This document shows, piece after piece, positions 7,159 through 21,025 of a stretch of DNA of 64,000 nucleotides. Numbering within the stretch: position 1 is the first letter of the stretch; every line of letters begins with the position of its first letter. A model generated the notes under the pieces. The model ran no database searches, had not been told where the DNA came from, and saw nothing but the letters and a program-made list of their open reading frames with translations. The position numbers and the translations under genes were made by a program. Source of the stretch: Spirochaetia bacterium (GTDB lineage: Bacteria; Spirochaetota; Spirochaetia; DSM-16054; Sediminispirochaetaceae); NCBI GenBank assembly GCA_034520965.1, contig JAXHMY010000009.1, forward strand, positions 128,001-192,000. Direction: 5' to 3'.

Positions 7159-7704
7159 ATGAAAAAACACTTTTTGTTCACCTTATTGCTTTTATCTGTA
7201 TACGGACATGCTGAAGCCGGAGGGGAAGCGGAAGCCTTCCATGAAACTGTTTCTTATGTGGATCTTGAACGGTTTACTGGAGACTGGTATGTCATAGCTG
7301 TTATCCCGACTCCCTTTGAGAAGGATGCGGTAAACGGTGTTGAAAACTACAGCCTAAACAAAGACGGTACAATACAAGTAAGATATACCTTCAGAAAAGG
7401 CTCTCCCGAGGGTAAGAAAAAAGTGATGTACCAGAAGGGGTGGATATACAACTCCGAGACAAATGCAGACTGGCGGGTCCGGCCAATCTGGCCCCTCAAA
7501 CTCCCGTATTATATTTTGGAACTTGACGAAGACTACAGCTATACGGTGATAGGCACAAATAACTATAAGTACCTCTGGATAATGGCGCGAAAACCGGTAA
7601 TGGAAAAGACAGTATATGAGGAAATTGTAAAACGAATGGAACAGCGGGGATACGATACTGATAAAATACAGATAATGAAACAAGATTACGAGGGACTGAA
7701 ATGA
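7159..7704 (+). CDS. Bacterial lipocalin (Blc family)
   Basis: VDLERFTGDWYVIA (GxW motif), Y.ILELDEDYSYTVIG, YLWIMARKP; signal peptide. Confidence 0.85.
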   Translation: MKKHFLFTLLLLSVYGHAEAGGEAEAFHETVSYVDLERFTGDWYVIAVIPTPFEKDAVNGVENYSLNKDGTIQVRYTFRKGSPEGKKKVMYQKGWIYNSETNADWRVRPIWPLKLPYYILELDEDYSYTVIGTNNYKYLWIMARKPVMEKTVYEEIVKRMEQRGYDTDKIQIMKQDYEGLK

Positions 7705-9515
7705 CAGTAGATACTATTACAGGCTTCCACCTTTATCATGGCTTTCTTTCAGGATCTTTTAATATTGCCAAACACCGGGAACATCTGAACAAAATCAATG
7801 TGTTTCCGGTTCCCGACGGTGATACCGGAAACAACATGGTCCAAACCTTCAGATCAATAGTAAAGGGCCTTAAATCTAACCGGTCAGCGGGAAAAATCCT
7901 CGAAGATATTGCCGACAGTTCGCTTGAGCATGCGCGAGGCAATTCCGGTATTATTATTTCCGGCAATACCTTAACAGTCTCTACAAAAACGCCGGTCACA
8001 GAGATTCCTATTCGATTAAAGATTTCGGTACCGCGGTAAAAAAGTACTGCCCTTAGCAAGGCATACCAGGCGATGGAAAACCCTGTTGAGGGAACAATTC
8101 TTACAGTGATAAATGAATGGGCTGAGGTCGTCCACAGCGAGAGCCATAAAGGTAGTGCTTTCGAAAAAATACTATCCAGGGCTTTTGCGGCGGCAAAAAA
8201 GGCTCTTCTAAAAACCCCTGAACAACTGAAAGTACTCAAGGAGAACAATGTAGTCGATGCGGGGGCAAGGGGATTCGTGGATTTCCTTGAAGGCATTGAA
8301 CTTATGAATAAAAACGGCCCGGTTACATCTTCAATTCGAAAGGAATTTATAGTGCCGCCAACTGAAACAGAGGATTATGAAAAGGGAGATCTGCATTCCG
8401 GCCCCGCGATGCTTGATTTCAGATACTGTACCGAAGTACTCCTTGAAAACGTGACGGATTCCCCCGGCAATATACGGAACGACCTGAAGGCAGTAGGGAA
8501 TTCCCTGATTGTGAGTAAGGGAATACACAGAACTCGTATACATATCCATTCAAATAGTCCCGCGGAAGTGGTGAGAAGAGCCGGAGAGTATGGCCGTATC
8601 ACTCAGCAGAAGGCTGATGATATGCTTAGGCAGGAACAGGTCCTTAGTAATCGACTGGGAGATGTGGCAGTTCTCACTGATTCGATAGCGGATATACCCC
8701 AGGAAATTCTTGATACATATCAAATCCATGTTATAAACCTCCAACTGATCTGGGATAATCAGGAATTCCTGGACCGCTTAACTATCTCGCCGGAGGCATT
8801 CTACCGGGAACAGGCTGTCAGAACTTCATTTCCCAGCAGTTCTACTCCTACAAGAGCCAGGGTAGATGCTATGTATCAATATCTGTTAGAGCACTACTCG
8901 GGCATCATTGTCCTTCCGGTAGCGAAAGCCCTGAGCGGTACATGGCAGCAGATGGTGCTTGCCTCCGAATCCTACAACAAAGACGAGCAAAGAATTATAA
9001 CTGTTGATACTCGCCTCAATTCCGCGGCTCAGGGACTCCTGGTTATAGAGATCGCAAAGGCCGCAGCCGAGGGAATGAATCTGGAGGAATTATCTGCTCT
9101 GGCGGAAAACCTGAAAAAGCGCATAAAAATTTTTGTCAGCGTACAGACTTTCAAGTATATGGTGAAAGGGGGCCGTGTGAGTCCCCTCAAGGGGTTCATA
9201 GCCTCCGCTCTGAATATAAAACCGATAGTATCTCTCGATGCTGCGGGAAAGGGAATTGCCTTTGAAAAATCCTTTTCCCAAAAGGGGCTTCTAAAGAAAA
9301 TGGCGGGCATCATTGAAGATATTGAAAAGAGAAAAGGAATCCAGAAGTATTGTGTTGTTCATGCACTTGCAGAAGATAAGGCCAAAGTATTCGCCTCAAT
9401 AGTCGAAAATAGTACAGGCAAAACTCCTGCATATATAAGCTCCATTTCGCCAATCGTAGGCATGCATTCTGGAAAAGGGGCTGTCGCGATTGGACTTATA
9501 GAAAAAGAAGGGTAG
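7701..9515 (+). CDS. DAK2 (FakA-like) plus DegV (FakB-like) fusion, with two compensating frameshifts (~7962, ~8042)
   Basis: LNKINVFPVPDGDTGNNM, ARGNSG, PVEGTILTV, VVDAGARG, RYCTE, RIHIHS, then DegV motifs TDSIADIP, LSGTW, KGGRVS, KPIVSL, GMHSGKG. Confidence 0.85.
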
Positions 9516-11041: not shown

Positions 11042-12488
11042 ATGAAAAAGATACAGTCCTCCGCTACCCTCAAAAGACTCCTGGTTATTGCCTTTCCTAT
11101 GGTTATCTCGCAGACCTCCGACACGATTATGCTCTTTGTGGACCGGTTTTTCCTCTCTCGGGTGGGGGAGGAATACCTGGCGGCCTCCATGAGCGGCGGT
11201 CTCTCCCAATTTATGCTGGGCTCTTTTTTTATAGGTACTATCGGCTATGTAACGGCGGTAGTGGCCCAGTACTATGGAGCCGGAAGGCATGAAAAATGTG
11301 CCGAAGCGACCTTTCAGGCCATTGTTCTCTCTTTTCTTAGTTATCCCCTTCTTCTGGCGCTTTCTCCGCTCATGCGGATTTTTTTCGCTTCCCTCGGGCA
11401 GACGGATTTACAGGTTGAGCTTGCGTATACCTATTTTCAAACACTTATTTTCGGCGTAATTTTTCTTATACTTCGCCATGCCCTGGCCGGTTTTTTTATC
11501 GGCATAGGAAGAACCACCGTGGTGATGATTGCCAACGCCGTAGGGATGTTTGTGAATATTCCCCTTAACTATGTATTGATCTACGGTAAGCTCGGTTTTC
11601 CCGCCCTCGGCCTTAGGGGTGCAGCTATTGGTACAGTTCTGGGAAATATGACTATCTTTATTATCCTGGCGGCCTTTTACCTTCGGGGCAGAAACCGGAC
11701 TGATTTTTCTACCCACACCGCTCTGTCTTTTCGTCCCAAAATACTCAAGACTCTATTAAAGTTCGGGGTTCCCGCAGGGCTTGGCGATGTTTCTCAACAT
11801 TGCAGCGTTTAACCTCTTTGTACAATCTATGCACTCCTACGGGACCAAGGTTGCGGCGGCGGTCACTATTGCCTTTAACTGGGATGTGGTGGCTTTTTTG
11901 CCGATGCTCGGGATGGGGCACGCCGTTACCGCTCTGGTGGGTCAAAATGTAGGTGCCGGGGATTACCTAGAGGCACGAAAGTCCGCCTTTATCGGCCTTA
12001 AGACCGCCTGGGTCTATTCTTTTTCCATAATGATACTCTTTATTGTAGCTGCCCGCCCCTTGGTGAGCGTGTTTATACCCGGCCTCGGGGGCGGAAGTAC
12101 CGAGGTAAGCAGCATGGCGGTTATCATGCTTCGCCTTGCCTCATTTTACGTGTTGGCGGACTCTGCGCAGATCGTCTTTACCGGTGCCCTGCGTGGTGCC
12201 GGAGATACCCGCTGGGTTATGTTCGTCTCGGTAGCCCTTCACTGGATGTTTGCCTGCGTGGCGCTCGTGCTTATAAGGATTCTCAAGGTAGACCCGGTTA
12301 TTGCATGGCTCGCTTTTATAGGTTTTATCATAGTGATAGGGACCAGCATGTTTCTCCGGTTCCTCGGAGGCAAGTGGAAGGATATTCAAATGATCGACGC
12401 GGAAGCCCCGGAATATCCCTACAGTTTAGGAACGTTTCCAGAAATTATCGCGGAAGAACCGGTAGAGCCTACATTGTCCGAGGACTAA
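11042..12488 (+). CDS. MATE-family efflux transporter, +1 frameshift at ~11781
   Basis: IAFPMVISQ..D.IMLFVD, VAQYYGAG, NIPLNYVLIYGKLGFPALGLRGAAIGT, VGQNVGAG, GALRGAGDT. Confidence 0.88.
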
Positions 12489-13396: not shown

Positions 13397-13738
13397 TCAT
13401 TCTGCGTGAATCCTGTGAATCATGAATTCCTTCCCGGTGATGATGCGGAAGTTTGCACTTCCGCATCTGGGGCAGAGATTGTCGTTCTCGACGAGGTTAT
13501 AGTTGAAGTTGCACCCTTCGCACTGTCCAATACCCGGTGTGATCTCCAGTTCGAGATTAGTGTCTTCGAGACGGGATTTTTCAACTGCGATGGGATACAC
13601 ATCTTCCAGGTATTTCGGAACTACGCCCGAGAGCTCCCCGACCTGGAGGACAAGTGTATCGATTCTGCGGATGTTGTTTTCATCCATAAAATCCTCCATC
13701 TGTTTGACGATCTGGATGACGATGCCGAGCTCATGCAT
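13397..13738 (-). CDS. hypA: Nickel metallochaperone HypA
   Basis: MHE N-terminus, VGELSGVV, CEGC...CPRC zinc site, TGKEF; 113 aa. Confidence 0.92.
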   Translation of the reverse strand: MHELGIVIQIVKQMEDFMDENNIRRIDTLVLQVGELSGVVPKYLEDVYPIAVEKSRLEDTNLELEITPGIGQCEGCNFNYNLVENDNLCPRCGSANFRIITGKEFMIHRIHAE

Positions 13739-16430
13739 ATTTATTCCCGCTTTTGAAAGTGCCGGTGAGCTTGCGGGCGGTAATGCGCACTTTACGTTTG
13801 AGCGCATGCTTGATAACTTCCTTCTTGAGGTCGGGGAAGTCGACCCCGGTCTCGTTACGGGTTTTTACAAGGCTAATCGCATCGAACTCGCAGCGTGTGG
13901 TACAGGCACCGCAGCCGACACACATGAATTCATCGACGATCGAGACGCCGCAATTCAAACAGCGCTCCGATTCATGTCTGAGCTGTTCCTCAGTGAGTGT
14001 TCCTGCGATCTCATCAAAATCGTTCTTGAAATTTTCCACGGGTCGGGTGTAGACGCGCTCCCTTGAAACGTTGTCGTAGCTTGTAAAATCGACAAGAGTC
14101 TTGTCGAGGGCTTTGTAGTTATTACGTTTGCGTCCGTACACAAGGGACTGACCGCGTTGAACATAGCGATGCAGTGAGATTGCGGCTTCTTTGCCGAGGG
14201 CAATTGCGTCAATGGCGAACTTCGGACCGGTAACCGCATCGCCGCCGGCGAAGATGTCGGGGTCGGTGGACTGAAGCGTAATTTCATCGACCTTGAGGGT
14301 TTTGTTGCGGTTGAGTTCGGCGCTGCTTCCTTTGAGCAGATGGTCCCATTGGATGACCTGGCCGATGGCAACGAGCACCTGGTCGGCGGGAAGGGTGATT
14401 CTGTCGTTCTCATCAAAAGCCGGGGAAAATGCGCCGTCCGCATTGAACACTTGCGTGCAGCGTTTGAATTCAACGGCGGTCACTTTGCCGTCTTGGACGA
14501 TGAAGCGGGCGGGTCCGTACCCGTTCTTAATCTCGACCTTCTCTGCTAACGCTTCGTGGACCTCATCGGCGAGGGCCGGCATTCCCTCTCTGGTTTCAAG
14601 GGTAACCATTGTGGTTTTCTGTGCGCCCTTGCGCACGGCGGTTCTCGCAACGTCAATGGCAACGTTTCCGCCGCCGATAACTATGGTTTCGCCGTTATGG
14701 TCTGCTTCCTTGCCGAGGGCGACATTTTTGAGGTAATCGACACCGGTCTCGACGTTTTTTGCATCTTCTCCTTCGAGTCCGAGTGCCCGGCCGCCCTGGG
14801 CCCCAATGGCAATAAAAACTGCGTTGTAGCCGTCTGCTTTCATTTCCGGGATGGTTATATCCCTGCCAACTTCAACTCCGGTTTTGAATTTCACACCGAG
14901 TTCCTTGAGCACATCGATCTCGGCATTGATGACATCCTTGTTCAATCGGAAGGCCGGAATGCCCAGGTTGAGCATGCCGCCGAGGGTTTTCTCTTTTTCA
15001 AAAACCGTGACGCTGTAGCCCTCTATGGCCAGATAATAGGCACAGGAGAGGCCTGCCGGGCCGGCACCGATAACAGCAATATGCTTGTCGGTGTAGTTAT
15101 GCTTGATCTCTGGTATGTAGCGCTCGTCTTCATTCAAATCTTTCTCGGCCACGAACTTCTTGATATCGTCGATGGCCACGGCTTCATCAAAATCCCCGCG
15201 CGTACATCCGGCCTCACAGAGTGCGGGACAGATACGTCCGCAAACCGCGGGGAAGGGGTTGTCTTTTTTGATGATTTTGAGCGCTTCTTTGTATTTGCCT
15301 TCGCCCGCGAGTTTGATATAGGCGGGTATGGAAATGTGAGACGGACACTCTGTTTTACACGGAGCAGTTCCTGTATCGAGCCCTTCGCTTCTGTTTATCC
15401 GGTAATCGAAATTCCACTTTTCCGTGCCCCATTCCGAGTTGAAGGGGACATCCTTGCGGAATTTGATCTGCGACTCGATGGAACGGCAGAGCCTTTCCCC
15501 GAGCTGAAGAGCTCCGGTGGCGCAGACATCGACACATTCGCCGCAGCCGACACATTTGTCCTTGTCTACCTGGGCTGTATAGTTAGAGCGCACCATATCA
15601 GGGTTGTTGTACATAGTCGCTGAACGAAGTGCATAGCATGAGCAGTAGCAGCAGTTGCAGATAGCGTGAGTGTGTCCCTCGCCCTCGACATTCGGAATCT
15701 GATGCATGAGCCCGTCCTTCTCAGCCCGGGCGATAATTTCGGAGGCCTCTTCCTTTGAGATCTCCCGGCCGCGCCCGGTGCGGATGTAGTATTCCGCCGC
15801 ATCATCGAGCTGGATGCACATATCTTCTTTCAAGTGCCCGCAGCCTTCGCCCATTTCTTCGCGGGAGGTTCGGCATGAACAGTCGGAGACAGAGATAACC
15901 CGGGCCTTGTTCAGGTATCTTGAGATCTCTTCTGACTCGGCAACCCGTGATGTCCCATCGAGGGAGGATTCAATCGGGATGACGCGCATAAGGCCCTTCC
16001 CTACGGGGATGTTTCCAGCGGCAACGGGGTTTCTGAGCCGACCGTAATCATCGAACGCCTTGGCTATCTGGGGATATTTTTTTACATTTTCTCGGTTGTT
16101 GACAACCATCTCGAAAATGCCCGGCACCCAGGTTTCGTGCCAGAACATGTCTACGCCCTCTTTATTGTTCACGGTCGCAACCCCGGCTTCTGCGAGGTCC
16201 CAGAGGATCTTGTGTGTCTTTTCTACGGGTTTATCGGCGCGCTTTGCAACTTCTTCGACGGTCATACGGACGCGGAACTCCAGGGCGAGGGCGACTTCGG
16301 CCATCTCTTCAGTGACCACCTTCTCGAGCAGGAGATAGCGCGGGTCATCGTAGGAGAAACCCTTCTTTGAACCGAATTTTACATTCGATATTTTGTGACA
16401 AAACTTCAATAGCTTTTCGTTTTCAATCAT
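13731..16430 (-). CDS. Multidomain Fe-S/FAD NAD(P)-dependent oxidoreductase: N-terminal HTH-like and Cys-rich domain, ferredoxin, GltD/NfnB-like core, C-terminal ferredoxin
   Basis: CSCR..C..C, ICNCCYCSC, CVGCGECVDVC, APCKTECP, VCGRICPALCEAGCTR, GAGPAG, GGGNVA, GGD, RCLNC, CVGCGACTTRC. Confidence 0.85.
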   Translation of the reverse strand: MIENEKLLKFCHKISNVKFGSKKGFSYDDPRYLLLEKVVTEEMAEVALALEFRVRMTVEEVAKRADKPVEKTHKILWDLAEAGVATVNNKEGVDMFWHETWVPGIFEMVVNNRENVKKYPQIAKAFDDYGRLRNPVAAGNIPVGKGLMRVIPIESSLDGTSRVAESEEISRYLNKARVISVSDCSCRTSREEMGEGCGHLKEDMCIQLDDAAEYYIRTGRGREISKEEASEIIARAEKDGLMHQIPNVEGEGHTHAICNCCYCSCYALRSATMYNNPDMVRSNYTAQVDKDKCVGCGECVDVCATGALQLGERLCRSIESQIKFRKDVPFNSEWGTEKWNFDYRINRSEGLDTGTAPCKTECPSHISIPAYIKLAGEGKYKEALKIIKKDNPFPAVCGRICPALCEAGCTRGDFDEAVAIDDIKKFVAEKDLNEDERYIPEIKHNYTDKHIAVIGAGPAGLSCAYYLAIEGYSVTVFEKEKTLGGMLNLGIPAFRLNKDVINAEIDVLKELGVKFKTGVEVGRDITIPEMKADGYNAVFIAIGAQGGRALGLEGEDAKNVETGVDYLKNVALGKEADHNGETIVIGGGNVAIDVARTAVRKGAQKTTMVTLETREGMPALADEVHEALAEKVEIKNGYGPARFIVQDGKVTAVEFKRCTQVFNADGAFSPAFDENDRITLPADQVLVAIGQVIQWDHLLKGSSAELNRNKTLKVDEITLQSTDPDIFAGGDAVTGPKFAIDAIALGKEAAISLHRYVQRGQSLVYGRKRNNYKALDKTLVDFTSYDNVSRERVYTRPVENFKNDFDEIAGTLTEEQLRHESERCLNCGVSIVDEFMCVGCGACTTRCEFDAISLVKTRNETGVDFPDLKKEVIKHALKRKVRITARKLTGTFKSGNKYA

Positions 16431-17101
16431 TACTGTGTACTCCGTTCCTGTATTTTTTTAAGCAGATAGTCGCACCATGCGTCCATACCGTCTCCGGTTT
16501 TTGCAGAGATGGGGAAAATCTTGATGTCGGGGTTTAGTTTTTTAACGCTTTCTTCCAAAGCCTCAAAATCGAAATCGAAGATGGATAGGGCGTCGGTCTT
16601 GCTGATGATAAGTACGTCGACTGCTGTGAACATCTTCGGGTATTTGAGCGGTTTGTCCGAGCCTTCGGGGACAGAGAGGATCATGCAGTTCAAATTCTGC
16701 CCGAGGTCATAGCTTGCAGGGCAGATAAGGTTACCGATGTTCTCGACAACCACGAAGTCCAGCGCCTGGGATTTTATATCGTCAAGGCCTTGTCGCACCA
16801 TCGCCGCATCGAGATGACACATGCCGCCGTTGTGAATCTGGATGACGTCGACACCGGTCTTCTGGATGGTCTTTGCATCGACATCGCTGTCGATGTCGGC
16901 TTCGATGATGCCGATATCAACGTGCTCCTTGATTCTGCTGAGCGTCGAGACCAGCATAGTTGTTTTTCCGGAACCGGGACTGCTCATAAGGTTCATCATA
17001 AAAGTGTCCGTTTGCTTGAGCAGGTCTCTGTTCTCTCCCGCTTCCTTGTCATTGTTCGCATATACGCTTTTTTTTACTTCTATTATTCTTAGTTCATCCA
17101 T
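16430..17101 (-). CDS. hypB: Nickel-insertion GTPase HypB (short form, no His-rich N-terminus)
   Basis: SSPGSGKTT, GGMCHLD, ENIGNLICPA, EGSDKPLKYP, SKTD, SAKTGDG. Confidence 0.92.
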   Translation of the reverse strand: MDELRIIEVKKSVYANNDKEAGENRDLLKQTDTFMMNLMSSPGSGKTTMLVSTLSRIKEHVDIGIIEADIDSDVDAKTIQKTGVDVIQIHNGGMCHLDAAMVRQGLDDIKSQALDFVVVENIGNLICPASYDLGQNLNCMILSVPEGSDKPLKYPKMFTAVDVLIISKTDALSIFDFDFEALEESVKKLNPDIKIFPISAKTGDGMDAWCDYLLKKIQERSTQ

Positions 17102-17115
17102 AATACATTCTCCTT

Positions 17116-17943
17116 TTAGTTTCCGTATGCCCTCGCAGAGTATTTCATTACATAGTCCTTGTTTCTATACTTCATAAACCAATAGCCTACATAAAAGATG
17201 TGGAGCCCCAGATTCAGCATGCCCCATGCCGTATGTACCTGGGGGTTGAACCAGGCGCTCGAATCCATAACCGGTGTAAAGATGTCATAGGATGAGCGGA
17301 TGAGGATGTGGATTCCCAGTGTGTAGATACGCCCCATCAGCCAAAGGTCTGAACGCTTCTTAATAAGCATCCAAAGCAACGGCACGGTGAGAATACATAT
17401 GCTCGAGGCAAAGTATGAAGGGTTCTCGCCATACACAAACGCCGCATTCCAGACAGTGTAGAGCAGGCACCAGGCGATCGGCAGGTCAGCGATTAGTTCT
17501 CCGAAATGCCTATGGCCGTCATACTTGGCGATTCGCCAATGCGTGCTGGGAAGCGGAATCGTAATGATTAGGATCACTCCGCAGAGGGCGTTGAATGGAT
17601 TGCCCATCTGGAAATCGGTAATGGTAGCTTCCAGAATATTGAGGGCTAACACTCCAAACAGTATCCATAGCGGCCATTGTTTCTTCAATGCCGGATATCG
17701 ATTCTGGTGTCTGCCGTTATTGGCCATCCGGATGTAGGACACAAAACAAAGCGGAATCAAAACGCTCAGGGTCTTCGACCAGCGGAAAAAACCCTCGAGG
17801 TTCAAAAACCATAGTGGAAATGTGAGCAAAGCGAGGATGAAGAACCATTTATAGAAGGATTCCTTCTCACGGGTGTATTCCAGAAATAGAAACAGGAAAA
17901 GCGTATACGTTCCCATCGAAACGATAAAGCTGAGTGCTTCCAC
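17116..17943 (-). CDS. Uncharacterised polytopic membrane protein (DUF5692-like)
   Basis: 275 aa with several TM helices; FRWSKTLSV, LALNILEA...DF, NALCG, YT.WNAAFVY, W.MGRIYTL; AGGAGG RBS before the GTG. Confidence 0.6.
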   Translation of the reverse strand: MEALSFIVSMGTYTLFLFLFLEYTREKESFYKWFFILALLTFPLWFLNLEGFFRWSKTLSVLIPLCFVSYIRMANNGRHQNRYPALKKQWPLWILFGVLALNILEATITDFQMGNPFNALCGVILIITIPLPSTHWRIAKYDGHRHFGELIADLPIAWCLLYTVWNAAFVYGENPSYFASSICILTVPLLWMLIKKRSDLWLMGRIYTLGIHILIRSSYDIFTPVMDSSAWFNPQVHTAWGMLNLGLHIFYVGYWFMKYRNKDYVMKYSARAYGN

Positions 17944-18128: not shown

Positions 18129-18171
18129 GAGTTTTGTGTAAGCCTGTGATACACTAGGTGTGGTGATGCTT

Positions 18172-19134
18172 ATGAAAACAGAATGCCAGGACATATTCCA
18201 ATCATATAACCTGCCCTTTAAGACCTTTTTCGTCGAGTGCGTCAATCATGAAAAAACCGTGCATCCAGATATCGAACTCATATGGGTGCTCAAGGGAACC
18301 GCCGTGATCGAAACGGAAAAACAGACCTTCAAGCTCCTGCCCGAGACAGTATTCATGGTTTACATGAATGAACCCCATGCCATCTGTGCGGAGAAGGACA
18401 CATTGATTGTCTCATATCGCCTGGATAATGCTTATCTTCATGACCGGGGACTTTTTTTTGAGAAAATACCCTTTAGGCAACGGGTGTTCTCCTTTGAATA
18501 TCTTGCCAAAAAATATAGGCAGGTGCCGCTCCTGCTGTTGCAGCTGCTTAAGTTATTGCTGTCGGAAGAACCGCGTGAGATTATCTATCACAAGATCAAG
18601 GCCTATTACAATTTCTATATCTTCGAGCTCTACGCTATCCTTTCTAAAGAGCGGTTCCTCGATGTAAAGACCATCAATTACGATGTGTATCTCCACCGTA
18701 CGAACATGATCGTCGAATACATTCATGACCATTGCACAGAAAAGGTGACGTTAGAGGATCTCGCCCGCCTCACGGACCTGTCGACATTCCGGGTGTCCCA
18801 TTTTATTAAGGAAGCTCTCGGCGTCTCATTCAAGAATTTTCTGAACAACGTCCGTTTTGAAAGGGCTCTCGAGCTTCTAAACGATTCCTCCGATAGTATC
18901 GTCGAAATCGCAAAAGAGGCCGGCTTCAGCGACTATAAACATTTCAACAGGATTATGAAGGAGCGCTTTGGAAAAACGCCCCTTAAGTTCAAAAAAGAAA
19001 ACACACCTCATGCGAGCAGGAAAGTTCTTCCTATCGAAAATTACAGCTTTATCCTCGAAATCAAGCAATGTCTCAAGAACCTTGAACAGGATTCGAGATT
19101 CCAAGAGCTTTTCAAGTTTGGAAATTTTAACTGA
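18172..19134 (+). CDS. AraC-family transcriptional regulator with N-terminal cupin
   Basis: HPDIELIWVLKG...NEPHAI cupin; VTLEDLA...SHFIK...F..FLN.VR, IVEIAKEAGFSDYKHFNR..KERFGKTP double HTH. Confidence 0.9.
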   Translation: MKTECQDIFQSYNLPFKTFFVECVNHEKTVHPDIELIWVLKGTAVIETEKQTFKLLPETVFMVYMNEPHAICAEKDTLIVSYRLDNAYLHDRGLFFEKIPFRQRVFSFEYLAKKYRQVPLLLLQLLKLLLSEEPREIIYHKIKAYYNFYIFELYAILSKERFLDVKTINYDVYLHRTNMIVEYIHDHCTEKVTLEDLARLTDLSTFRVSHFIKEALGVSFKNFLNNVRFERALELLNDSSDSIVEIAKEAGFSDYKHFNRIMKERFGKTPLKFKKENTPHASRKVLPIENYSFILEIKQCLKNLEQDSRFQELFKFGNFN

Positions 19135-19166: not shown

Positions 19167-20262
19167 CTACAAATCGAGCTCTAATGATTGGTACCCGCCA
19201 TAGTAGGCTTCGGCTAACGATTCGTATACATCGAAATTAAGAAAGAACCGGCTAATCTCATTAGTTTTCTCAGCCGGTTTGATATCCGTAAACGCTTCGG
19301 GATACAGCATAGTCCCGAGATAATAGGCGTTCGCAAGGGCGATCTCGATGTTCGTGGAATAATAATTGTAAGGCATCTGCATGAATACATCGCCCTTATT
19401 GAAGGCTTGCAGACTGTCATAGTATTCCGGCATTGCCTGTATATCCCGCATCAAAAGCTCATAGCCGTTTGCATCGATTACAATGATTTCAGGATCCCAC
19501 ATGAGCAGTTGTTCCTTATTGATGAAGACATACTTTCTTGATTCCTGCGAGGGAGACGACATTTTCCGCATTGATATAGTTGAGAAGGTCATAGTCGCCC
19601 GAAGTGCTTCGGATGCCCTGCACCCCGCTTCTTGGCAGACAACCCAGATAGACGGCTTTGGGGTTTTCAATGCTGGAAGTACGTTCGATAAGGTCAGCTT
19701 TTGTATTTTCAATATAGGTAATGACGGCCGCGGCCCTGGCTTTGTTGCCGGTAACTGCTCCGATTATTCTGAGGGACGCATACATTCTTTCATTGAATAC
19801 ACTGCCGTGGGCGGTGTCGCGGGTAATGGTTACCACCGGAATCCCCGTATTGGCCTGAAGGCGTTCGATTGCCCTGCGTTCATAATGATCGCTCACGATG
19901 ATTACATCCGGATCAGCATTCAGGACCCCTTCGGCGTCGAAGGATGCCTGTGGTCCGCCAGGTCCTACATCGGGAAGTCTGTCGAACCTTTCTTCATAAA
20001 GCTGAGCATAGGGCCGTCCGGCGGTGTTTTTGTTTTTTTCAAAAGTCTCGATTCCAACGATTTTATCGGGTTCTCCTATATAGGTATAAAGCCTGAGGGC
20101 GCCCGGCCCTATCGCTATGAAACGGTTGGATTTGGAAGGGACCGAGACTTCACGTTCGTACACATCCAGTACTGTGATGGAAGCTGCGTCTGCGATGGCC
20201 GCACCGCAGCTCCACAGTAAAAAAACGAAGGCGTATGTTGAAAGTAAAAAAAAGTTCTTCAT
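19167..20262 (-). CDS. Class III (iron-siderophore/cobalamin-type) ABC substrate-binding lipoprotein, +1 frameshift at ~19533
   Basis: Lipobox LWSC; DVYEREVSVP, GPGALRLY, EGVLNADPDVI, KEQLLMWDPEII, PYNYY.TN, LYPEAF.D. Confidence 0.8.
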
Positions 20263-20278
20263 AGTGTGATCTCCTGTT

Positions 20279-21025
20279 CTAGTAAATAACATTTTTCATG
20301 CCCTTGTGGTGCAGGATTTCAGCGTGAACACCATACACGGTCTCTATCATATCGCTTGTTATGATATGCTCTTCTCCAAAGCCATACACCCGACTATCTT
20401 TCATGAAGAGATACTTGTTGGAGAAGCGCATGGCGAGATTGACGTCATGCATGCAGACGATAAGGGTTCGATTTTCAGTTTCGGAGAGGTCCTTGATGCA
20501 GTGTGCTATTTCTAGCTGATTTTTCATGTCCAGATTGCTGGTGGGTTCATCCATCAGGATGATCGGGGTCTCCTGGGTGAGCGCCCGGGTAATGAACACT
20601 TTTTGCCTTTCGCCTCCGCTGAGACGGCTAATGGGTGTCAGCGCTTTGTCTGAAAGGCCGAATTTTTCTATGTAGGCTTCAGTTATTCTGAGGTCTTCCT
20701 TTGTGACGTCGTAACGGATGTGGGGTCTTCTTCCAAGAAGAACAGTATCGAATACGGTGGCGTCCGTGAAAGACCCCTCCTGCGAGACATAACTCACCTG
20801 CCTTGCAAGTTCGTCGCTTGAATACTCATGCAGCGGTTTTCCATTCAAGTGAATTGCCGAATTTGTCTTAAGAATTCCGAGCAGACATTTGAGTAAGGTC
20901 GATTTGCCCACCCCGTTCTCTCCGAGTAGTGTGACACAATCGCCCTTTTCCACTTTGAAGGAGATGGCATCGAGCACTGTATTTGAGCCGTATTTGAAAG
21001 TCAGATTATTTACTTCAATGGGCAT
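20279..21025 (-). CDS. FecE/BtuD-type ABC transporter ATPase
   Basis: GENGVGKST, LSGGERQKV, LMDEPTSNLD, MHDVNLA. Confidence 0.9.
   Translation of the reverse strand: MPIEVNNLTFKYGSNTVLDAISFKVEKGDCVTLLGENGVGKSTLLKCLLGILKTNSAIHLNGKPLHEYSSDELARQVSYVSQEGSFTDATVFDTVLLGRRPHIRYDVTKEDLRITEAYIEKFGLSDKALTPISRLSGGERQKVFITRALTQETPIILMDEPTSNLDMKNQLEIAHCIKDLSETENRTLIVCMHDVNLAMRFSNKYLFMKDSRVYGFGEEHIITSDMIETVYGVHAEILHHKGMKNVIY

Follow-up and report, generated by a model that had tools for sequence, protein, structure and literature searches.

A hypB- and hypA-flanked IsrA-family flavoenzyme in a Spirochaetia genome, with a six-cysteine domain as candidate chaperone client

Which protein do HypA and HypB serve in a genome where no [NiFe] hydrogenase is found? 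The question is raised by a four-gene operon at positions 13397 to 17943 of a 64,000-nucleotide stretch of DNA (hereafter the window) from a Spirochaetia bacterium (GenBank assembly GCA_034520965.1, contig JAXHMY010000009.1, positions 128,001 to 192,000), in which hypB and hypA lie on either side of a gene for an 899-residue Fe-S flavoenzyme. A first-pass annotation of the window had proposed this enzyme as the nickel client of the two chaperones and as a candidate new system. Analysis of the source assembly, related loci and the literature places the locus as a further member of the described IsrA family, not the discovery of a new system; the client proposal survived the genomic tests, the HypA tree and the finding of a second hypAB locus, while its novelty did not. 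The comparisons below establish the domain anatomy of the enzyme, its conserved six-cysteine (Cys6) site, its hypA/hypB/DUF5692 neighbourhood and its dedicated HypA lineage. HypA and HypB very probably serve this enzyme.

The operon and the anatomy of its enzyme

The genes run on the minus strand in the order DUF5692-like membrane protein, hypB, 899-residue enzyme, hypA. The hypB stop overlaps the enzyme start (TAATG at 16432-16428), and the enzyme stop overlaps the hypA start (ATGCATGA at 13738-13731). Re-derivation of the coordinates returned the four intact open reading frames, their order and strand and both overlaps as first described. HypA matches PF01155 (E 2e-29), carries the MHE start and two CxxC motifs, and scores under the TIGR00100 cut-off (70.9 vs 88.1 bits). 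HypB lies above the TIGR00073 (hypB equivalog) cut-off (249 vs 121 bits) and keeps the metal ligands C95-H96 and C127 (CH and CPA). These motifs had been read correctly in the first pass, and the Pfam and TIGR matches agree with them. The features, with L numbers as our labels for loci, are as follows.

17116..17943, minus strand: DUF5692-like membrane protein, 275 residues; open reading frame, DUF5692 match with E 2.5e-9, divergent subtype
16430..17101, minus strand: hypB, 223 residues; open reading frame, G-domain type without a long N-terminal metal-binding extension
13731..16430, minus strand: IsrA-like (clade 9) Fe-S flavoenzyme, 899 residues; open reading frame, domain matches and homologue identity
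13397..13738, minus strand: hypA, 113 residues counted from ATG; PF01155, placed in the enzyme-linked HypA clade of the tree
18160..19134, plus strand: AraC-family regulator, divergent from the operon; Pfam match, head-to-head also in L007, L008, L010 and L064
Within the enzyme, all on the minus strand:
15591..16430: N-terminal domain, residues 1-280, with a winged-helix part and a cysteine-rich part; proposed chaperone client, Pfam-free
16107..16334: winged-helix-like subdomain, about residues 33-108; structural matches with Z <= 6.9
15636..15881: six-cysteine site C184, C186, C205, C258, C260, C265, with R187, H243 and N259; 81/81 alignment rows
15522..15554: N-terminal half of a split 2[4Fe-4S] ferredoxin, C293, C296, C299, C303; Pfam and motif
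13941..15398: GltD/NfnB-type module, about residues 345-830, with two Fe-S clusters and FAD (flavin adenine dinucleotide) and NAD(P) sites; Pfam and PDB matches
14595..14603: TLE, residues 610-612, where the NADP-binding YRR is expected; alignment
13890..13922: C-terminal half of that ferredoxin, C837, C840, C843, C847; Pfam and motif

Pfam analysis revealed Fer4, Fer4_20 and Pyr_redox_2 domains, with PF07992, PF14691 and the two 4Fe-4S ferredoxin motifs (near residues 290 and 840-875) expected of clade 9 of the IsrA family; nothing in Pfam matched before residue 286. The GltD/NfnB-type module is recovered from the PDB with strong matches (9bov, E 6e-101; NfnA 9n5u, E 3e-88). The enzyme scores under the cut-offs of both TIGR01316 (295 vs 472 bits) and TIGR01318 (284 vs 483 bits), and reaches no NCBIfam cut-off. 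At the YRR position, 103 homologues gave xLE or CIE in 93, YRR in 5 and no match in 5. By the rule described for DsrL and NfnB, in which YRR marks NADP use (PMC7596348), the replacement by TLE makes NAD(H) the likely cofactor, and the loss of YRR points to NADH as the donor. The five homologues that keep YRR (L072, L079, L082, L083, L221) probably represent an NADPH-using subgroup. Because both ferredoxin motifs are contiguous in a stand-alone paralogue described below, the flavin module appears to be inserted into a 2[4Fe-4S] ferredoxin, whose half-motifs at 293-303 and 837-847 would pair.

The first 280 residues were examined separately. A PDB search with a 119-row profile gave, among the 60 of 367 matches listed, none before profile position 276 and only the ferredoxin part, and the clusters returned by the ESM Atlas were all unnamed or ferredoxin-named. 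An AlphaFold (AF2) model of residues 1-320 has a mean predicted local distance difference test (pLDDT) score of 88 and a predicted template modelling (pTM) score of 0.86. In a VIA fold search every top-ranking structure was a winged-helix protein, with Z at most 6.9 and thus never 8 or more, and residues 33-108 resemble the ArsR, MarR, Fur and TFE winged helices; Foldseek returned a best E of 0.014 and none <= 0.001. No solved structure matched the whole domain in these searches, and we do not claim a new fold because the cysteine subdomain is barely covered by them. The six cysteines, R187, H243 and N259 are invariant in 81/81 hypA-linked homologues, and the cysteines are nearly invariant over fused and stand-alone forms together. 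The Cys6 site is the equivalent of the site called cluster V in IsrA.

Chaperone genes and HypA lineages across genomes

The source assembly (3.35 Mb in 9 contigs, 85.9% complete) contains no match to PF00374 ([NiFe] large subunit) or HypD, HypC, HypE and HypF not having been searched separately; urease alpha, CooS, CdhC and LarC were likewise not found in it. One weak Lar_N match (E 1.6e-8 to 2.5e-8) corresponds to a divergent LarA-like protein (contig C1, 818214-818663; L006 769-2037), and several [FeFe]-hydrogenase-like genes are present. A prismane match considered as a carbon monoxide dehydrogenase (CODH) fails TIGR01702 and reads as a hybrid-cluster-type protein. The hypB/hypA pair of the operon is not alone in the genome: a second hypA-hypB pair was found on contig C7.

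A search with residues 1-345 as query returned 5745 proteins among 8000 candidates scored. Of 79 genome loci, some interrupted at contig ends, 58 include hypA, 50 include hypB and 41 include a DUF5692-like gene; the hypB-enzyme-hypA association is conserved. Genome-level tests took 50 of the 79 carrier genomes, the 29 left out being mostly short loci. All 50 carry hypA and 16 carry hypD; in 12 of these 16, the contig with hypD has a further hypA at a distance of about 5 kb or less from it. Many carrier genomes hold two or three paralogues of the enzyme, and of 19 distinct further hypA loci (a 20th being a duplicate of L059), 14 flank another IsrA-like paralogue, the remaining five comprising two lone hypA genes, one hypA-hypB-DUF5692 group and two hypA-hypB pairs of another type. 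Among 20 selected genomes with hypA and without hypD, CooS was detected in 3 and LarC in 7, with no urease and no [NiFe] large subunit above cut-off; 13 of the 20 have none of HypD, [NiFe] large subunit, urease, CooS or LarC. The same holds for Izemoplasma B36 and Clostridium MB05, which carry complete-genome titles. The first-pass annotation had named two genomic outcomes that would speak against it, a triad not conserved in relatives and a triad confined to genomes needing hypAB for a hydrogenase. Neither was obtained, since the triad is conserved and is present in genomes without signs of a [NiFe] hydrogenase (34/50 carriers lack hypD).

A HypA tree was built with 35 of the 83 enzyme-linked HypAs (a random sample plus that of the window), duplicates and the short loci L223-L248 being skipped. 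One branch, with a Shimodaira-Hasegawa-like approximate likelihood ratio test (SH-aLRT) support of 94, takes 35/35 sampled enzyme-linked HypAs and 0/14 hydrogenase-linked ones. The 15 HypAs linked to stand-alone Cys6 proteins form a second branch (support 97), and the 14 hydrogenase-linked HypAs fall outside both. L049, tagged as stand-alone in this tree and in that of the N-terminal domain, is actually a split fused gene. In the tree the enzyme-linked HypAs thus constitute a dedicated lineage, apart from the HypAs of hydrogenases. The nickel-binding start of HypA, M1-H2-E3, is invariant in 81/81 enzyme-linked HypAs.

The enzyme is 68% identical over its full length to the homologue of Candidatus Izemoplasma sp. 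B36, with which the operon block is collinear (HypA, 68%), while genomes of the same class reach only 58-59%. No long match to the hypB-enzyme-hypA DNA was found among 9 congeners; in one of them (genome G053) the AraC and DUF5692 genes are present as far as the contig end. The operon may have been gained laterally.

Several features of the neighbourhood are recorded here. The DUF5692-like subtype of this operon clusters separately and occurs in 7/104 loci. The AraC gene stands head-to-head with the operon in four of the closest loci and is the likely controller of the operon. A GntR regulator gene is found in 27/104 loci. A PF01593 flavin amine-oxidase-family gene (about 420 residues) lies near the operon in 12/104 loci (L019, L022, L028, L029, L032, L036, L056, L058, L059, L086, L251, L254), possibly encoding a partner that acts on terpenoid or lipid substrates. 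Subunits of a 2-hydroxyacyl-CoA dehydratase (HGD-D twice) and a BadF-type activator lie beside one enzyme subclade in 5/104 loci (L087, L097, L099, L100, L102). In G026, three HypA matches with identical scores lie within 7 kb beside the enzyme (C9:389772, 393996, 396527), either a tandem duplication or an assembly repeat. In L250 (G102:C1), an IsrA-like gene interrupted by an early stop is followed by hypA and hypB, and then by genes that we take, by eye from the sequence start, for a glycyl-radical activator and enzyme.

Promoter and terminator scans did no better than chance (7 vs 5.7 and 7 vs 5.5, respectively). No sequencing run on record as RNA carries the operon; two runs of one study hold scattered near-identical pieces, and as their RNA status is a guess they were not used as evidence. 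Genes split in two frames occur in the window at 19167-20292 (ATP-binding cassette (ABC) binding protein), 11042-12488 (MATE-like transporter) and 7701-9515 (DAK2/DegV fusion), and the prismane protein gene (L004 1125-2757) is also in two frames. The operon is indeed intact, as first described. Its intactness among broken genes had been offered as an argument for it, which we dropped: the adjoining ABC gene differs by one base from two congeners in which the frame is open, so the breaks near the operon may be assembly errors or very recent.

The Cys6 domain as candidate client and the competing readings

The second hypA-hypB pair lies tail to tail with a gene for a 388-residue protein that has only the N-terminal domain and a ferredoxin (C7:109684-111879; L003 9685-11880) and is about 28% identical to residues 34-307 of the enzyme. 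In 16 genomes of the same family, which are kin and not independent cases, a protein of this type adjoins hypA in 8 (with one intervening gene in one of them), and hypB was confirmed in the 7 fetched; these 8 have no HypD above cut-off and no full-length enzyme in the searches made. Of the other genomes, 7/16 are without both genes and 1/16 has a hydrogenase-linked hypA and a fragment. Of the 10/80 metagenomic stand-alone loci with hypA or hypB, 8 are only 43-48% identical to the query. What the two chaperoned forms share is the Cys6 domain and its ferredoxin, whereas the flavin module belongs to the enzyme alone; this points to the Cys6 N-terminal domain as the part probably served by HypA and HypB. 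In a tree of this domain (15 fused rows, plus only those unlinked stand-alone rows whose flanks reach 1 kb or more upstream and 1.5 kb or more downstream), the enzyme groups with the fused clade (support 99). A third paralogue of 429 residues (C1:958707-959996; L106 6708-7997) keeps the six cysteines and lies far from any hyp gene. The source genome thus combines both chaperoned forms with an unchaperoned one, a natural three-way test of the need for nickel.

Beside the C7 pair, a ferritin-like gene of the Dps type and a gene for a Fur/PerR-like regulator suggest an oxidative-stress or metal context. At L003 15156-17648 (plus strand) lies a gene for an 830-residue protein with a Radical_SAM match, which we take to be two fused KamA-type radical SAM modules.

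The reading that we put forward, with chances that we consider even, is that of an NADH-driven C=C reductase with a HypAB-matured, probably nickel-containing Cys6 site. NADH would reduce the FAD of the GltD/NfnB module, and electrons would run via four [4Fe-4S] clusters to a fifth centre at C184/C186/C205/C258/C260/C265. HypB, a GTPase, would pass nickel to HypA, which would insert it at this centre; HypCDEF could be dispensed with, there being no Fe(CN)2CO unit to assemble. The Cys6 centre would then hydrogenate an unactivated C=C bond, probably a conjugated one, in a hydrophobic substrate of the diene, terpenoid or lipid-like kind, providing the fermenter with an extra electron sink. Nickel is the somewhat favoured metal; that the reaction is C=C reduction could hold or fail with similar probability. 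A broader proposal, which we regard as tentative and a little short of an even chance, is that an unrecognised nickel-enzyme class has the winged-helix/Cys6 domain as its catalytic core. This core would exist in two forms, one fused to a ferredoxin only and the other an NADH-linked flavoenzyme with the flavin module placed between the ferredoxin motifs; each of two HypA lineages would have become specific to one form, producing a Ni-Fe-S centre with no HypCDEF.

Several observations weigh against this nickel-dependent C=C reductase. The HypA tree is a quick one over 113 columns, and in it the sister of the stand-alone-linked branch comes from a genome with a [NiFe] hydrogenase. In G006 and G026, two of the 16 genomes with hypD, no hypA above cut-off was found except at or near the enzyme locus. 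Within the DNA fetched, the metagenomic stand-alone loci have hypA or hypB in only 10/80 (4/30 of the loci of at least 6 kb), and linked and unlinked stand-alone forms are interleaved on the N-domain tree. The 429-residue paralogue is common in the family and occurs in three genomes (92-95% complete) without a hypA above cut-off, so the Cys6 domain can exist without HypA. A CbiM-type nickel transporter was not found in the source assembly. The literature searched, which covered few subscription papers, yielded no nickel measurement, purified enzyme or knockout. Finally, four Acetobacterium strains tested do not reduce isoprene, in a genus carrying clade-9 homologues 47-49% identical to IsrA (PMC10134865), so the substrate cannot be transferred from IsrA and, for the present enzyme, need not be isoprene.

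The unchaperoned Cys6 domains in close relatives and in most stand-alone loci speak for the possibility that HypA and HypB do serve the enzyme but deliver or protect iron or zinc, or help to build an all-iron cluster of the double-cubane or P-cluster type, with no nickel involved. This would also fit the missing CbiM match and the comparison by Kronen et al. of the site with P-clusters and double cubanes (PMC10134865). We consider it unlikely: the M1-H2-E3 start of HypA is invariant in all 81 enzyme-linked sequences, and HypB both scores above the hypB equivalog cut-off and retains the CH and CPA ligands. Also unlikely is a HypAB-matured nickel protein with another reaction (sulfur, selenium, nitrogen or H2/CO chemistry, or electron bifurcation with a partner), dienes being confined to the IsrA/Pelotomaculum subclade. 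The Acetobacterium strains that fail on isoprene (PMC10134865), the two or three paralogues in many genomes and the varied neighbours (GntR in 27, flavin amine-oxidase in 12 and 2-hydroxyacyl-CoA dehydratase in 5 of 104 loci) are what such diversity would predict; the physiology described for the family in the sources covered, however, concerns dienes only, and the Cys6 region is strongly conserved throughout the fused clade.

The predicted winged-helix fold of residues 33-108 and the existence of forms made of domain plus ferredoxin only are also compatible with a regulatory module that senses metal or redox state, loaded by HypAB and with its redox state set by the flavin module. This is improbable: the structural matches stay at Z <= 6.9, within the range of a common arrangement, the operons have their own AraC, GntR or TetR regulators, and the induction of the founding member, one of the strongest observed (PMC10134865), is more in keeping with an enzyme than with a sensor. 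Very improbable, and on the genomic comparisons apparently already largely refuted, is that hypA and hypB are mere passengers of the operon, their client being a known nickel enzyme (hydrogenase, urease, CODH or lactate racemase) that is missing from the assembly. Room for such an enzyme is left by an 86% complete assembly with a weak Lar_N gene, by hypD in 16/50 carriers and LarC in 7/20, and by nickel superoxide dismutase, glyoxalase I and acireductone dioxygenase, which lay outside the nickel-enzyme searches. Yet 34/50 carriers are without hypD, including the complete-titled Izemoplasma B36 and Clostridium MB05, hydrogenase clusters mostly retain their own hypA, and the HypAs fall into separate lineages.

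Only some nine to ten classes of nickel enzyme are known. Should IsrA-type proteins bind nickel at the Cys6 site, they would add one more, hydrogenating unactivated C=C bonds, with a bearing on anaerobic terpene and isoprene turnover and on biocatalysis. The value of the locus is practical: the likely chaperone target is narrowed to one domain of about 280 residues, the 388-residue stand-alone version should be easier to express, the unchaperoned paralogue offers a control and NADH is predicted as the donor. The survey also implies that hypA/hypB matches in genomes of anaerobes are often no sign of a [NiFe] hydrogenase.

Comparison with IsrA and other known systems

IsrA (VUZ27132.1), a protein of 901 residues, is induced by isoprene in Acetobacterium wieringae (ISORED-2 / strain Y) with HypA, HypB and a 350-residue ferredoxin, no proteins responding more strongly to isoprene than IsrA and the products of its hyp genes; isoprene is given as its likely substrate (Kronen et al. 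2023, PMC10134865). The host is without hypCDEF and [NiFe] genes, and among 988 IsrA homologues surveyed there the frequencies were 0.73 for hypA, 0.56 for hypB and 0.4 for DUF5692, close to our counts. The six-cysteine cluster V, with CxC pairs at 180/182 and 254/256, was modelled and proposed as a nickel site in that paper, which likened it to P-clusters and double cubanes. The family, the hypA/hypB/DUF5692 neighbours, the absence of hypCDEF and [NiFe] genes and the idea of a nickel client are therefore published, and the label of a candidate new system does not stand. According to Jin et al. 2022 (PMC9765523), strain Y acts on conjugated dienes only: isoprene and butadiene are reduced, while ethene, propene and fumarate are left unchanged. 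In a Pelotomaculum enrichment, transcripts of hypA rose about 373-fold and those of hypB about 585-fold with isoprene (2026 preprints 10.64898/2026.02.25.708027 and 10.64898/2026.02.19.706888), the mechanism being left open in the portions of both preprints covered. No biochemically characterised member of the IsrA family was found in the literature searched, in which few subscription papers were covered; within that scope, the earlier statement that no characterised example is known was borne out.

The present enzyme shares with IsrA clade 9 the length of about 900 residues, an unannotated first 270-280 residues, four canonical cluster motifs and the FAD/NAD(P) module. Its six cysteines are clustered as in IsrA, and the two CxC pairs among them are shifted by 4 residues. 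The locus has hypA, hypB and DUF5692 within a few genes, and its genome yielded no HypD or [NiFe] large subunit in the searches made, in line with an IsrA host that is without hypCDEF and [NiFe] genes. The enzyme is 53-55% identical over about 886-890 residues to five Acetobacterium-genus homologues with hypA/hypB neighbours, against 47-49% between IsrA and such homologues, and with its length, Cys6, domains and neighbours it shows the features of clade 9; the likeness runs through these bridge homologues rather than through IsrA itself, which was not found among six loci fetched from 27 Acetobacterium-genus genomes. The genera of its nearest named relatives (Izimaplasma, Proteiniclasticum, Oceanispirochaeta) appear in the published clade-9 tree (Fig. 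S4, PMC10134865). The isr operon itself differs: it has five genes (enzyme, two hypA, hypB and ferredoxin), whereas the present order is DUF5692-hypB-enzyme-hypA with a divergent AraC gene, one hypA and no ferredoxin. The 26-residue insertion of IsrA (residues 756-782) was not seen in the present enzyme against 12 homologues, those of the Acetobacterium genus included. Because this insertion and the five-gene operon are both missing, the enzyme is not likely to be an isoprene reductase proper.

The 388-residue protein has its counterpart in the 4Fe-4S ferredoxin of the isr operon (VUZ27135.1), 350 residues aligned to residues 1-270 of IsrA, whose plan it shares. Kronen et al. saw HypA and HypB unassociated with the isr-operon ferredoxin, and a link of stand-alone Cys6 proteins to hypAB is absent from the sections consulted (PMC10134865). 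In the present survey, by contrast, 8/16 family genomes and 10/80 metagenomic loci have a stand-alone homologue linked to hypAB genes of its own and lack a full IsrA-like gene there.

Proteins of the NfnB/GltD/DsrL/NsoC type (PDB 9bov, 9n5u, 4ylf, 6s6s) share the flavin and cluster module at about residues 340-835, and no N-terminal Cys6 domain occurs among the matches listed. NfnB and DsrL-2 have YRR and use NADP, whereas the present enzyme has TLE, as does the NAD-using DsrL-1 (PMC7596348). Compared with the maturation system of [NiFe] hydrogenases, both present chaperones keep the metal ligands of HypA and HypB; unlike a [NiFe] maturation locus, no hypD or large subunit was found in the 86% complete assembly, and the present HypA, under the TIGR00100 cut-off, belongs to a clade separate from the hydrogenase HypAs.

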